Part shown: positions 17,140-27,187 of the stretch, piece by piece
How positions within the stretch are numbered: the stretch's first letter is position 1
Layout: every line of letters starts with the position of its first letter
Source: Candidatus Heimdallarchaeota archaeon B3_Heim
Lineage (GTDB): Archaea > Asgardarchaeota > Heimdallarchaeia > Hodarchaeales > Hodarchaeaceae
Reading direction: 5' to 3'
NCBI GenBank assembly: GCA_003144275.1
Contig: NJBF01000019.1
Location: forward strand, 1 to 32,000
DNA length: 32,000 nucleotides
Notes under the pieces: model-generated
Told to the model about the DNA's origin: nothing
Database searches by the model: none
Seen by the model: the letters and a program-made list of their open reading frames with translations, nothing else
Program-made: the position numbers and the translations under genes

Positions 17140-18591
17140 TTGGAAATTAGACAGACGAAAGTATTTTGCCTCTTTCGTGATGTAAAGGGCCTAGAATCAT
17201 TCTTTCTAAGTGATCTTGCCCAATCTGATATTCTACGTTGTATAATCTCTATTAAGGAGGAGGGAAAAAAACCTATTGGTTTTCAAGCAGAAATTACGGA
17301 AAGATATGATGTAAAATTCATAGAAATCGCTTCAACGAAGCGAAAAAAGACATCTCTTACCTTTCTTAATAAAGAAATGAAAAGCTGCCTTTCAGAAGTC
17401 CCTAAATCAGCACTTGGAATCCATTTCTTTTTGGATTTCTCGAATATTAAATTCCCTACGAAGCAGATTCTACTAATTGTTGACGCATTTGAAAAACATC
17501 TCATTAAAAATAAATCCGAGTTTACTATTTTTGCCATATTTAATGAACAACACCTCTCTAAACAACAATCTCGACAGCTGGCCCTAAGATTTCCATATCT
17601 GTGTTTATCACCTTCTCAAATCTATCCAAATTTCTATTACGATGATGGCTCCAGCAGAAAGTTTCCAGAATCACTTAGAGAATTATATCAGCCCATAGAA
17701 ATCCTGATAAAGGAATTGAAAGCTGAAAAATTGGAGATAGAACGATTAGAAAAACAGCTATTTCAAATATCAACTCAGCGTAACATATTAGAGTCAACTT
17801 TATCTTTTTATTTAGCCCAAGAAGGGAAATCTCGAAGTTCTCATGAGATTCCTGCAGATTTGATCTCATTAATGGAATTTCATTCGTTGAAACAAAAATA
17901 CAATCAAAAAACACAAATCCTTTCAACGGTTATTCATGATTTAAAATCTCCCCTGGCATCAATCCAAGGTTATTCTGAAGTAATCCTACATGGGTTATCT
18001 GGACCGATTACCCCAGAAATGAAAAAACAGCTCGGTACAATTATTACTAATACTCATCGTCTCGCTCGTATGGTTGATAGTCTTCTTGAATTCGAGCAAT
18101 ATGATCGATCAACCTACATTGCGGAAAGGGAGACTTTCGATTTAATTTCAATTCTCGAAGATGCAAAAATGGGGGTTCTTCCTCAGATGATTCGTAGAGG
18201 TCAAAAAATATCATATTTTGTACCAGAATCATTAGAAATTGTAGCAAACAAAGAATTAATTGTAAGAGCCTTACAAAATCTATTAGATAATGCCATCAAA
18301 TATTCACCCCCCGAAAAGGGTCAGGTAGAGGTATATGTTGAGGAAAAAAAAGCAGGGCATCAAAATGTAGTTATAATCACAATACAAGACAATGGTTTTG
18401 GATTCCGAAAGGCTGATTTGAAGAAAATTTTTCAACCATTTTCTCGATTCGAGACGCATTCAAAATCAACTGGATTAGGCTTATCTATCACAAAGAAAAT
18501 TATCGAAGATATTCACGGGGGAAAAATCAGCCTAATCTCTCCCGGGAGGAATAAAGGGAGTACTGTAAAAGTAGTTTTACCTAAGACCTAG
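17140..18591 (+). CDS. Sensor histidine kinase: degenerate MEDS-like N-terminal domain, coiled coil, HisKA, HATPase_c
   Basis: H-box STVIHDLKSPL (His266), N-box LQNLLDNAIKYS, G1 DNGFG, F-box IFQPF, G2 GLGLSIT. The N-terminus ends FAIFNEQHLS...RFPYLCL...IYPNFYY, resembling the MEDS C-terminus. No TM segment. TTG start after GAGGGGT. Confidence 0.92.
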   Translation: MEIRQTKVFCLFRDVKGLESFFLSDLAQSDILRCIISIKEEGKKPIGFQAEITERYDVKFIEIASTKRKKTSLTFLNKEMKSCLSEVPKSALGIHFFLDFSNIKFPTKQILLIVDAFEKHLIKNKSEFTIFAIFNEQHLSKQQSRQLALRFPYLCLSPSQIYPNFYYDDGSSRKFPESLRELYQPIEILIKELKAEKLEIERLEKQLFQISTQRNILESTLSFYLAQEGKSRSSHEIPADLISLMEFHSLKQKYNQKTQILSTVIHDLKSPLASIQGYSEVILHGLSGPITPEMKKQLGTIITNTHRLARMVDSLLEFEQYDRSTYIAERETFDLISILEDAKMGVLPQMIRRGQKISYFVPESLEIVANKELIVRALQNLLDNAIKYSPPEKGQVEVYVEEKKAGHQNVVIITIQDNGFGFRKADLKKIFQPFSRFETHSKSTGLGLSITKKIIEDIHGGKISLISPGRNKGSTVKVVLPKT

Positions 18592-24181: not shown

Positions 24182-24979
24182 ATGCCCCTAGAGAATAATC
24201 AAATCTATAATATGGATTGTATTGATGGCCTAGCTCAACTTGAGAAGAATTCAATTGATCTTTTACTAACCGACCCACCTTTCGGAATAGATTTTCATAA
24301 AGTTGGAACCCAATACAACAGAAAGCAGAAAGAGCTCGGTAAAATGTACCATGAGGTCTCTTCTGAGGAATATTATGATTTTACCTTAAATTGGTTGAAA
24401 CCCTGTTGGGAAGCTATGAAACCTAGTGCTAGCGGTTACATTTTTAGTGGATGGAACCATTTGGGGGATATTTTGAATGCACTTGCTCAAATAGGGTTTC
24501 GGATTATCAATCATATTGTATGGAAATATCAATTTGGAGTATTTACAAAAAAACGGTTTGTCACAAGCCATTACCATATACTATATTTCACTAAATTAGG
24601 GGTGAAGGAGGATAGATTACGGACGTTTAATAGGGTACCTGAATATAGCAGTTCCCCAGGGAAACTATATTTTGAGGATGTCTGGCGCATTAACAGAGAT
24701 TATCAGAAAGGGGGAGAAAAGACACCAACTCGACTTCCTTTAGCAATCACCGATAAATGTGTACGAATGGGAAGTAATGAGGGTGACACCATACTTGAAC
24801 CCTTTTTAGGGAGTGGGAGTGTGGTATTATCAGCAATAAAATACAATAGACAGTTCATCGGCTTTGAATTATCAGAGAAAATCTATCAAATTGCTGAAAG
24901 ACGGATAAAAGACCAAATAATCGATCTTGGCACTAAGGATACTAGCTTGGATTTCTGGTTAAGTGATACTGGGAAATGA
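24182..24979 (+). CDS. Site-specific DNA methyltransferase (N6-adenine/N4-cytosine, beta class), orphan
   Basis: DCIDGL, catalytic TDPPF before the SAM-binding ILEPFLGSGS (beta order), NHIVWKY and GFELSEKI. No restriction nuclease gene is adjacent. Confidence 0.92.
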   Translation: MPLENNQIYNMDCIDGLAQLEKNSIDLLLTDPPFGIDFHKVGTQYNRKQKELGKMYHEVSSEEYYDFTLNWLKPCWEAMKPSASGYIFSGWNHLGDILNALAQIGFRIINHIVWKYQFGVFTKKRFVTSHYHILYFTKLGVKEDRLRTFNRVPEYSSSPGKLYFEDVWRINRDYQKGGEKTPTRLPLAITDKCVRMGSNEGDTILEPFLGSGSVVLSAIKYNRQFIGFELSEKIYQIAERRIKDQIIDLGTKDTSLDFWLSDTGK

Positions 24980-25043
24980 TTCATGAATGTTTCAAACAAC
25001 TAATTAATTACAATAATTTAAGGAGCAAAACACGAATACATCC

Positions 25044-26075
25044 GTGGTAAGTATGGTTTTCTTAATTACTGGTGGTACTGGTCTAGTAGGGAGTTTTTTA
25101 CTAGAAAAATTTGCCGCTACACCTTCATTAAACGAGAGTGAATGTCGTGTCATTGTACGTAATTCCGAAAGTAGGCTGAAAGTTGAAAAACTCGGATTAA
25201 CTCCAATTGAAGCTGATTTAAATGACATTGCCAGTTTAAAGAAAGCAATTAAAGATGTTACTTCTGTTATTCATTTAGCCGCGAGAGCAGATGATTGGGC
25301 TACATGGAAAGACCTTTACAGGGTTAATGTTGAAGGACTAGAGAATTTAGTATCAGTTTGTCGCAATGCTAATACCGATCCATTCATTTCTCACGTGAGT
25401 TCTACAGGGGTTTACGGCCATTATATTCCTAGTACACGAGTAACTGAAACATATCGGTTTAATCCTACAAGTATATATCAAAAGAGTAAATATTACCAAG
25501 AAAAGCATTTATGGGAGCTGAAGGAGCATGAAGGATGGGAAAATTTCAGTCTTGTTAGATCACCTAGTATAATAGGACCACGAGACACTAAAACGATAGG
25601 TGAAATATTCAAAGCTGTCTATGAACATAAATTCCCAATTTTAAGAGGCGGAGATATGTATGCTACATTTATTCACCCTCTAGATCTTAGTACAGCACTC
25701 CTTCTGTTAGATTCTAACAAGTCCCGTTCGAAAGGACAAGCATACAATGTCCGATCCTTTGAAACTAAAATGACGATTTTCTTAGAGTATATTGTTAAAT
25801 TAGTTAATCCACCCAAGGCCCCCTCTCCAATTAATTACCGTCTTGTTTACACTGTAGCTGTATTATCCGAACTCTATTCAAAGATTTCAGGTCGAAAAAC
25901 GACATTGAATAGGTATCGTGTAACAAAATTTGCCAAGTCTCGCCGTTATGATGATACGAAAATAAAAACGGAACTCAACTTTAAACCAGAAAAGAACATG
26001 GAAATTACACTTGATGAGTCGTATGAATGGTTAACATTACACGGTATTTTTCCGCCGAAGCAAAATGTGGATTAG
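25044..26075 (+). CDS. NAD-dependent epimerase/dehydratase (extended SDR)
   Basis: TGGTGLVG, HLAA, VNVEG, SSTGVYG, YQKSK (YxxxK) and R...IIGPRD. Alternative ATG at 25053. Confidence 0.9.
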   Translation: MVSMVFLITGGTGLVGSFLLEKFAATPSLNESECRVIVRNSESRLKVEKLGLTPIEADLNDIASLKKAIKDVTSVIHLAARADDWATWKDLYRVNVEGLENLVSVCRNANTDPFISHVSSTGVYGHYIPSTRVTETYRFNPTSIYQKSKYYQEKHLWELKEHEGWENFSLVRSPSIIGPRDTKTIGEIFKAVYEHKFPILRGGDMYATFIHPLDLSTALLLLDSNKSRSKGQAYNVRSFETKMTIFLEYIVKLVNPPKAPSPINYRLVYTVAVLSELYSKISGRKTTLNRYRVTKFAKSRRYDDTKIKTELNFKPEKNMEITLDESYEWLTLHGIFPPKQNVD

Positions 26076-26218
26076 GGTTACTTTAGAGAGAATACCTAGT
26101 CCAGAAAAGGGAGGACTAAGAAAGAGAATATGTAAACATTTAGATATAAATAAAAAACATAAATTCTCTAACCTAATCAGAATCTAATCCGTAACGATTT
26201 CATCTTGAAGGTATCCAC

Positions 26219-27187
26219 ATGAGTGATGAGAATATTGATCCTATTATCAACGCGCGGGTACTTCTGGTTGAGGATTCGAAAGATCATCAACTACTGTTTG
26301 TGAAACGTCTAAATAACCTTGGCATCCACAATATCACGATAAGTGAAACAGGTGAACAAGCTGTTGAGAAGATTAAGGGAGAACCAGATTATGACCTAAT
26401 TCTGGTGGATTATAGTCTTCCAACAGGACTTTCTGGCATTGATGTGATACGTGAAATTAGAAATTTGAATCCAGAAATTCCAATCATTATGGTAACTGGT
26501 TTAGGATCTGAACAAATTGCCGTGCAGGCAATGAAGTTAGGTATTCAAGATTATATCACAAAAGATGATCTCCTACAAGCAGATCTTAGAGAAAATATTG
26601 TTCCCCTCTTGCTTGAACGAAAATTACAACAGGAAACTGTCCTAGCTAAACGCTTGGAGGATGATCCCACACAATTGTCAATTTCAGTATTCAAATTTGG
26701 CAAAGTAGGACCCGAGCCATATCTCACATCCCCTCTTCCTTTTGAAAATGCATTTGAATCTGAACAAGACAGAGAAAGCTTTCTTTTAAAATTAGGGACA
26801 CATTACATGTCTGCTACGGGGACAGGACATGATTATGCACAAGGATTATACGAACTACCTGTTCCTAGTCCTCATCCGTTTATAGCTCCCAATGACCACC
26901 AAGAAGAGACGACTCAACCTCCAAACTCCTTTAGTAAATATCATAGTTTAGTTTATGGGTTTAGAATGACTGAAAAAGACCATCTCGATGAACGGATAAA
27001 GCTCAATAATTCATTAAATTATGGTTTAGTAGTAGTAACGTTTCCAATCCTCTATAGATCAATTTTACCTAATAGAGCTGTAATAGAAAAACGGTTTAGT
27101 GAACTCTTGAGTGCATATCACGATATGAAGGAATTAAATATAGAATTCTTGAAGCGTGCTCAACAAATTTTTCTTCTCTCAAAGTGA
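26219..27187 (+). CDS. Response regulator: N-terminal receiver fused to a C-terminal longin/uDENN-like domain
   Basis: Receiver with LLVEDS, phospho-acceptor D64 (LVDYSLP), T93 (MVTG) and K115 (DYITK). The C-terminal ~170 aa start SISVFKFGKVGPEP. The receiver call is firm; the longin call is inferred. Confidence 0.88.
   Translation: MSDENIDPIINARVLLVEDSKDHQLLFVKRLNNLGIHNITISETGEQAVEKIKGEPDYDLILVDYSLPTGLSGIDVIREIRNLNPEIPIIMVTGLGSEQIAVQAMKLGIQDYITKDDLLQADLRENIVPLLLERKLQQETVLAKRLEDDPTQLSISVFKFGKVGPEPYLTSPLPFENAFESEQDRESFLLKLGTHYMSATGTGHDYAQGLYELPVPSPHPFIAPNDHQEETTQPPNSFSKYHSLVYGFRMTEKDHLDERIKLNNSLNYGLVVVTFPILYRSILPNRAVIEKRFSELLSAYHDMKELNIEFLKRAQQIFLLSK

Follow-up and report, generated by a model that had tools for sequence, protein, structure and literature searches.

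Eukaryotic longins of the folliculin and NPRL2 type switch off Rag and Arf GTPases, and the gene studied here joins a bacterial-type two-component receiver to such a domain in a single archaeal protein. The gene lies in the first 32,000 nt of contig NJBF01000019.1 of Candidatus Heimdallarchaeota archaeon B3_Heim, a stretch that we refer to as the window. Its 322-aa product has three parts: a CheY-like receiver (REC), a linker helix of 25 residues, and a C-terminal domain without a match in Pfam. From the sequence alone, an original prediction had read the C-terminal domain as a longin related to uDENN domains and had proposed that a His-Asp phosphorelay is wired through it to small-GTPase regulation. 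In our models the domain has a longin fold, and the protein is a well-supported further member of a receiver-longin class already reported from Asgard archaea. Its role in GTPase control would be that of a phosphorylation-switched regulator, a reading that we weigh below against three others.

The open reading frame (ORF) is a conserved gene and not a chance frame, as attested by some 30 orthologues that share its two-part build and by 72 invariant columns among 25 aligned orthologues. Many of these columns fall in the C-terminal domain, across which the orthologues are 53–94% identical; their source names are Hodarchaeales, Kariarchaeaceae and Hodarchaeota. The N-terminus is conserved in the alignment, and the invariance of D7 and P8 indicates that the start codon is right. 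Pfam returned the receiver match alone, with nothing in residues 145–322, and NCBIfam likewise recognised only the receiver. In the AlphaFold2 model of the full-length chain (predicted local distance difference test score, pLDDT, 78; predicted template modelling score, pTM, 0.68) the order is receiver, helix, longin, and the chain ends 3–4 residues beyond the last longin helix. A helix had been expected behind the receiver and is present, although at 25 residues it is not the short one described. Coordinates are given in Table 1.

Table 1. Positions of the features discussed, in window coordinates unless a locus, contig or alignment row is named.
Feature	Position	Strand	Basis
Receiver-longin response regulator gene	26219..27187	+	ORF list and translation; 322 aa plus stop codon
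Receiver (REC, CheY-like), residues 13–116	26255..26566	+	Pfam PF00072; AlphaFold2 (βα)5 pattern
Codon of D64, predicted phospho-acceptor Asp	26408..26410	+	Translation
Linker helix, receiver α5 to longin, residues 124–148	26588..26662	+	AlphaFold2 full-length model
Longin domain, residues 153–319	26675..27175	+	AlphaFold2 on 40-sequence alignment; structural matches
GP motif G164-P165, β1–β2 turn	26708..26713	+	Aligned orthologues
Variable low-confidence insert, β3–β4 loop, residues 217–237	26867..26929	+	Missing from 299–302-aa orthologues
D257-E258-R259, candidate arginine finger, β4–β5 connection	26987..26995	+	Conservation
HisKA/HATPase_c histidine kinase, candidate phosphodonor	17140..18591	+	Pfam HisKA 5e-12, HATPase_c 4e-24
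Rag-Rag-longin-Rag cluster, four co-directional genes	L028:5511-9255, contig C87 ~85010-88754		
E64 orthologues	Alignment rows P0012-P0021 and P0029; locus L009:8001-8936		Substituted receiver site

The receiver is canonical. Pfam Response_reg (PF00072) matches residues 14–116 at E 1.6e-21, with 77 bits against a cut-off of 30.2, and among PDB sequences the full-length family profile retrieves receivers only, NtrC1 (1zy2) being one of them (E 9e-19); its match to the NtrC1 receiver with linker reaches profile position 154. D64, T93 and K115 stand where they had been placed from the sequence, and the active-site set is completed by the acidic residues E18 and D19 and by Y112, the switch tyrosine. 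In the window protein's own clade, all five active-site positions are intact and conserved. Across the 25 aligned orthologues, position 64 is Asp in 15 and Glu in ten. The Glu forms are 311 aa long (one record is named Kariarchaeaceae) and have Gly or Glu at position 19; some also lack T93 or K115, and all keep the longin motifs. In a tree of the longin domain, the E64 clade is nested within D64 clades, as sister to the window protein's group, so the E64 form appears to be a derived pseudo-receiver. Judged from its residues, it is likely to be independent of phosphorylation and is perhaps locked 'on'.

Fold and conserved motifs of the C-terminal domain

A search with residues 145–322 found 37 relatives among 1.84 billion representative proteins. 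An alignment of 40 copies of the domain, PAS- and TPR-fused members included, was the input to AlphaFold2 and gave a model with a mean pLDDT of 92.2 and a pTM of 0.88. The elements run β1-β2-α1-β3-β4-β5-α2-α3, at protein residues 154–160, 165–170, 182–200, 209–214, 241–251, 266–276, 286–298 and approximately 308–319, respectively (alignment positions: strands E10-16 and E21-26, helix H38-56, strands E65-70, E97-107 and E122-132, helices H142-154 and H164-175). Every element that had been named from the sequence was thus recovered. Longins are told from roadblock domains by two C-terminal helices and the lack of an N-terminal helix (PMC10933270); the domain has precisely this arrangement, unlike a roadblock. 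In the full-length model, pLDDT falls below 50 at residues 220–234, the sole disordered stretch within the longin domain, which lies in the variable β3–β4 insert.

An exhaustive structure comparison (VIA-align) against 48,161 PDB representatives placed first the longin of a Lokiarchaeota Roadblock-Longin protein, 8yqg_B, with Z 12.6 over 133 residues at a root-mean-square deviation of 2.9 Å. The next matches were the Lst4 longin (Z 10.3) and FLCN in the lysosomal folliculin complex (Z 9.9), followed by AP-3 sigma and C9orf72-SMCR8 (both Z 8.7), FNIP2 (Z 8.4), an Npr2/Npr3 chain of the SEA complex (Z 8.3) and an NPRL chain of GATOR1 (Z 8.1). Background scores were lower, at Z 6.9 or less for roadblock and MglB chains and 5.9 or less for PAS and GAF domains. 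Foldseek also put 8yqg first among PDB entries (E 1e-3), ahead of GATOR1, SEA and FLCN chains, and among Swiss-Prot models it returned SMCR8, DENND6, C9orf72, NPRL2, AVL9 and DENND11. In the ESM Atlas, the neighbours of the database's own model include members of the NPR2, Folliculin and SMCR8 families as well as Asgard Arf/Ras/Roc GTPases to which a similar domain is fused. These models identify the C-terminal domain as a longin, with the FLCN/FNIP/NPRL/SMCR8/C9orf72 class as its nearest structural kin. The original prediction had named a GAF, PAS or DNA-binding fold as the contrary outcome, and that outcome did not arise. We also reject DNA-binding, GGDEF and kinase outputs, for which Pfam gave no domain and the structure comparison no fold match.

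A weaker tier of matches suggests a different use of the domain. GAF, PAS and IclR effector domains appear at Z 5.5–5.9 and Foldseek E 0.1–0.4, and no other effector is recognisable in the protein. The domain might accordingly sense a small molecule in the manner of GAF, PAS or profilin-like domains, making the protein an integrator of two inputs with no output. We consider this very improbable: those scores are far under the longin matches (Z up to 12.6), and the β2-α-β3-α2 topology is that of a longin. Moreover, the domain usually sits C-terminal to PAS or GAF sensors, which is the place of an output, and from the topology its conserved residues would occupy loop edges and not line a pocket.

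At the level of sequence the domain is isolated from eukaryotic families. The profile of the 40-sequence alignment matched PDB sequences only by chance (plastocyanin, E 1.7), so that no solved relative is found by sequence. In a 5.8-billion protein set it retrieved Asgard signalling and stand-alone proteins only; none of them is annotated as NPR2 or Folliculin, and a sequence-level bridge to the eukaryotic families is accordingly missing from this search.

Two short motifs tie the domain to a particular group of longins. The first, G164-P165, occupies the β1–β2 turn and is present in 24 of 24 aligned orthologues that cover the column, the 25th row (P0029) being gapped there. Judged by Foldseek start offsets, and assuming a gap-free alignment, this turn falls within about one residue of SMCR8 G68-P69 and C9orf72 G38-P39. 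The second lies in the β4–β5 connection, where D257 and R259 are invariant in the 25 aligned orthologues; a D-P/x-R motif also occurs in six paralogues of the same genome. Across the 40-sequence alignment, the Gly, the Arg and D257 are at least 90% conserved and the Pro varies, with Ala, Ser or Thr in some members.

The F-x-GP hairpin of the window protein is the GP motif described in PMC12290439. According to that study, the motif sits just before β2 in FLCN, NPRL2, SMCR8 and C9orf72, where it adjoins the catalytic arginine finger, and it does not occur in FNIP2, NPRL3, adaptins, TRAPP or DENND proteins. The signature had originally been ascribed to NPRL3 as well as to NPRL2, folliculin, C9orf72 and SMCR8; it holds for the last four and is absent from NPRL3 (PMC12290439). 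The same study ties the GP motif and a conserved Arg to longins that are GTPase-activating proteins (GAPs), not guanine nucleotide exchange factors (GEFs), and reports both 'in the same structural arrangement' in Heimdall-type Asgard longins. In the window protein, the topology would bring the β1–β2 and β4–β5 turns to one edge of a 2-1-5-4-3 antiparallel sheet, and R259 could be an arginine finger equivalent to FLCN R164, NPRL2 R78 or SMCR8 R147.

Family, gene neighbourhood and candidate partners

The same longin stands at the end of proteins with N-terminal PAS repeats, GAF-PAS, REC-PAS, TPR arrays or other receivers; it also occurs ahead of a PAS domain, or alone. Named homologues come from Thor-, Odin-, Heimdall- and Hodarchaeales bins (Thorarchaeota, Odinarchaeota, Heimdallarchaeota, Kariarchaeaceae) and carry only the database labels 'PAS domain S-box protein', 'response regulator' and 'TPR protein'. 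Since the longin-ended Asgard signalling proteins contain no further output domain, the longin itself appears to be their output.

We ran the profile of the 40-sequence alignment at E ≤ 1e-5 over a 301-genome sample of the phylum. It matched in all 77 other Heimdallarchaeia genomes sampled, with 1–12 copies each, and its occurrence outside this group is patchy (0/76 and 1/68 in the two largest other families, 5/7 in another). Receiver-longin proteins are found in at least five families of Heimdallarchaeia. In the longin-domain tree, PAS and TPR fusions lie between the receiver fusions, which make up at least four clades with good support. Support at the deep nodes is weak, so that repeated fusion is likely, not proven. 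Proteins of about 296 aa from other Heimdallarchaeia (L011, L012, L017) combine a Cys-rich, CxxC-type PAS-like N-terminus with the same longin and form well-supported clades of their own. Among sequencing runs, only small shares of the sampled sequence words were present in marine-sediment and cold-seep DNA runs, and no RNA run was listed as containing them.

The receiver-longin gene stands alone, 143 nt from the epimerase gene upstream and 87 nt from the ABC transporter gene downstream. The order DNA methylase, NAD-dependent epimerase, receiver-longin (window 24182-27187) is kept in three Hodarchaeales relatives (L008, L009, L010), at identities down to 57–82%, and further upstream are an M20 peptidase gene and wyosine-synthesis genes. 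Neither here nor in the three relatives does a GTPase, kinase or roadblock gene adjoin the receiver-longin gene. An AT-rich element, TTTAGATATAAATAAAAAAC, lies at window positions 26139-26158, about 60–80 nt 5′ of the start codon and within the 143-nt gap behind the epimerase gene; judged by eye, this may be a TATA-type archaeal promoter belonging to the gene itself. A sigma-70 promoter and terminator scan gave 7 sites against 5.7 expected and 0 intrinsic terminators, the model being a bacterial one that is uninformative for an archaeon.

The histidine kinase at 17140 had been put forward as a candidate phosphodonor. It lies 7.6 kb upstream of the receiver-longin gene, not adjacent to it, and no other HisKA kinase of the assembly is on the same contig as a receiver gene. 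Its orthologues (42–95% identity) are on the same strand as the receiver-longin gene and 7–19 kb from it in four of five relatives; in the fifth, a single-contig genome, the distance is 1.66 Mb. Because the whole region is syntenic, this proximity is weak support for a pairing, and a partnership of the two proteins, as judged from gene positions, is conceivable though somewhat doubtful.

These data bear on whether the receiver is phosphorylated in vivo at all. A constitutive longin carrying a structural pseudo-receiver, with a vestigial two-component link, would account for the ten of 25 orthologues that have E64, lack D19 and in some cases lack T93 or K115 while retaining every longin motif; it would also fit the lack of an adjacent kinase and a genome with just 6–7 HisKA kinases. 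Such an account, which overlaps the other readings, strikes us as improbable for the window protein. Conservation of the five active-site positions in its own clade speaks for selection on phosphorylation, the E64 clade is derived, and an orthologue of the HisKA kinase remains within 7–19 kb in four of five relatives.

The genome (3.95 Mb, 94% complete) offers many possible clients: it has about 51 Arf/Ras-type small-GTPase matches and five strong Rag/Gtr1-type genes. Its receiver domains number 6–7, of which four stand alone, one is in a REC-4xPAS protein, one in a REC-PPDK_N protein and one in the receiver-longin protein. The REC-4xPAS protein (L030:2660-5047 (+), contig C94; 795 aa) has a receiver followed by about four PAS domains and no recognisable output. 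The PPDK_N protein (L031:210-3200 (-), contig C68; 996 aa) pairs a weak receiver (E 2.5e-7) with PPDK_N (E 1.5e-37), the AMP/ATP-binding domain of pyruvate phosphate dikinase, an unusual architecture for a receiver.

Six further paralogues of this longin type (L002-L007; contigs C63, C87, C10, C76, C48 and C11) all have a GP or G-x turn and the D-x-R motif. Most consist of an N-terminal longin and an unannotated C-terminal extension of 100–200 aa. In one, L005, the longin follows a large β-rich N-terminal region and a hydrophobic segment, and this protein is possibly membrane-anchored. The paralogue on contig C87 lies within a cluster of four co-directional genes: a RagA/Gtr1-like gene (334 aa), a divergent Rag-like gene (314 aa), the longin paralogue (271 aa) and a second RagA/Gtr1-like gene (310 aa), separated by gaps of 10, 24 and 15 nt. 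Its longin protein has the GP and D-x-R motifs and a C-terminal extension. The cluster is a candidate operon of archaeal Rag GTPases and a longin regulator, and it is the best evidence within the genome that longins of this type work with Rag-like GTPases, from a paralogue and not from the window's gene. Another Rag-like gene lies about 3.4 kb upstream of the cluster, on the opposite strand. Chance-level matches to the Folliculin model, at C87:11839-16613 and C49:18958-19128, fall within very long open frames (8821, 1542 and 3079 aa), and one of these giant ORFs lies just upstream of a Rag-like gene pair (C49 20924-22434).

Candidate function

What might the fusion do? With confidence a little short of even, we favour a longin module under phosphorylation control whose target is a Rag- or Arf-like GTPase and which probably acts on it as a GAP through R259. 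A HisKA kinase, of which the one at 17140 is one of about six candidates, would phosphorylate D64 of the receiver. The 25-residue linker helix would then relay a conformational change, by which the longin would become differently exposed or change its oligomeric state. With the face on which the GP turn and R259 lie, the longin would bind a Rag- or Arf-like small GTPase of the genome and most probably speed up GTP hydrolysis, so that the protein would be a phospho-controlled GAP.

Several observations support this account. The receiver has the residues for its chemistry, and the longin fold is predicted at high confidence with GAP-type neighbours. The GP motif and the Arg are conserved, features that are tied to GAP longins and seen in Heimdall longins (PMC12290439). 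The domain is used in modular fashion, taking the terminal 'output' position behind REC, PAS, GAF-PAS, REC-PAS and TPR modules. A paralogue with the same motifs is linked to Rag genes, the approximately 51 small-GTPase-like genes are possible clients, and Asgard Arf/Ras/Roc GTPases that carry a look-alike domain are among the Atlas neighbours. From these observations we infer the phosphotransfer, the GTPase binding and regulation, the GAP activity and the identity of the partner.

Other observations weigh against a GAP role. Pfam NPR2 (PF06218) and Folliculin (PF11704) do not match the protein at E up to 10, genome-wide scans with the two models do not touch its gene, and the Folliculin model matches only two of the 40 family members, faintly (E 0.012). 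In one receiver-longin clade of another family, GT replaces GP. The conserved neighbours of the gene encode an N6/N4 DNA methylase and a NAD-dependent epimerase, with varying genes downstream, and the window's contig (C34) has no GTPase, roadblock or second longin gene. Replacement of D64 by Glu and of D19 by Gly or Glu in a nested clade implies that phosphorylation is dispensable for function there. Finally, eukaryotic longin GAPs have DENN or C-terminal lobes and act as heterodimers that are part of large complexes; the window protein has no DENN or family-specific C-terminal lobe and stops right past the longin.

In its most specific form, the favoured account would make the receiver-longin protein a simple, possibly homodimeric, arginine-finger GAP for a Rag-like GTPase, switched directly by His-Asp phosphorylation. 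We regard this specific form as unlikely. A co-fold of two longin copies scored 0.25, where the mark is 0.42, a result that bears neither way on dimerisation.

Many of the structural neighbours at Z 6–9 are longins that are not GAPs (AP-3, AP-2 and AP-5 sigma, TRAPP, VAMP7, Sec22 and Mon1-Ccz1), and longins serve as GEF platforms more often than as GAPs (PMC13408092). The domain may therefore be a non-catalytic platform, whether adaptor, dimerisation module, scaffold or GEF-type, with phosphorylation of the receiver controlling the assembly or localisation of a complex and with no GAP activity of its own. Parallels would be SNARE longins, adaptor sigma subunits, TRAPP and MglB/Ragulator, and involvement of a GTPase would be optional, in keeping with a gene neighbourhood that contains none. 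This is the main alternative, to be taken seriously, if a doubtful one. A GP turn with an invariant Arg is reported to set GAP-type longins apart and to be lacking in adaptins, TRAPP and DENND proteins (PMC12290439); the highest structural scores belong to the FLCN/FNIP/NPRL/SMCR8 class and to an Asgard longin; and one paralogue lies within the candidate Rag operon.

Relation to known systems

The original prediction had left room for the fusion being undescribed. The type has already been reported for Asgard archaea by Liu et al. (bioRxiv 10.1101/2020.10.19.343400, Fig. 5c; Nature 2021), who describe an 'NPRL2-like longin' fused to two-component signalling domains and propose that growth regulation in these archaea is still centred on two-component systems with 'eukaryotic' regulators. 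The window protein resembles those fusions in its Asgard origin and in combining an NPRL2/FLCN-type longin with a two-component module, in its case a receiver, and the idea of prokaryotic His-Asp signalling feeding 'eukaryotic' GTPase regulators is the same. Their account of the fusions consists of one sentence and a figure panel, a part of the work that contains no structure, motif analysis or experiment.

The Asgard FLCN/SMCR8-type longins of PMC12290439 (Traffic 2025), a set of 15 proteins, likewise have a GP turn between β1 and β2, a conserved Arg and an enrichment in Heimdallarchaeia. The paper makes no mention of signalling fusions: none of the terms 'response regulator', 'receiver', 'CheY' and 'PAS domain' appears in it. 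Neither it nor the sentence and panel of Liu et al. includes functional tests of these longins.

Among eukaryotic proteins, FLCN, NPRL2 and SMCR8, with their partners FNIP, NPRL3 and C9orf72, share the longin fold at Z 8–10 over 120–140 residues and the GP motif with a conserved Arg in the loop ahead of β5. Sequence identity to them is 5–14%, with no Pfam match, DENN or C-terminal lobe or known heterodimer partner on the side of the window protein. Whereas they are controlled through nutrient-sensing complexes, control here would be exerted through the fused receiver. The Lokiarchaeota Roadblock-Longin protein (8yqg), on which the library searched had no publication, is also an Asgard longin and the best structural match, and its entry title says that it is dimeric; its partner domain, however, is a roadblock and not a receiver, and sequence identity is 14–16%. 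The Myxococcus RomR/RomX-MglA-MglB module follows the same logic, in that RomR, a protein with a receiver domain, targets a small GTPase whose regulator has the roadblock fold. In that bacterial system RomR has no longin or roadblock of its own and MglB (fold match Z 6.0) is a separate protein.

To the known class the present analysis adds a high-confidence fold, a class-wide distribution, a pseudo-receiver sister clade and a Rag-longin operon candidate in the same genome. Its value is tempered by the earlier report of the architecture and by the lack of an adjacent partner gene in the window. The protein nevertheless offers a handle on whether Asgard GP-motif longins are GAPs: it is small, soluble and single-chain, and switchable by BeF3-, acetyl phosphate or D64 mutants. 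Were it the simple, directly switched GAP described above, it would be a living model of pre-eukaryotic GATOR1/folliculin nutrient signalling, and the output of the E64 sister clade would have become constitutive. If the function proposed here is true, prokaryotic two-component logic would be joined directly to eukaryote-type regulators of Rag and Arf GTPases, which would bear on the origin of GAPs of the GATOR1, folliculin and C9orf72 types.

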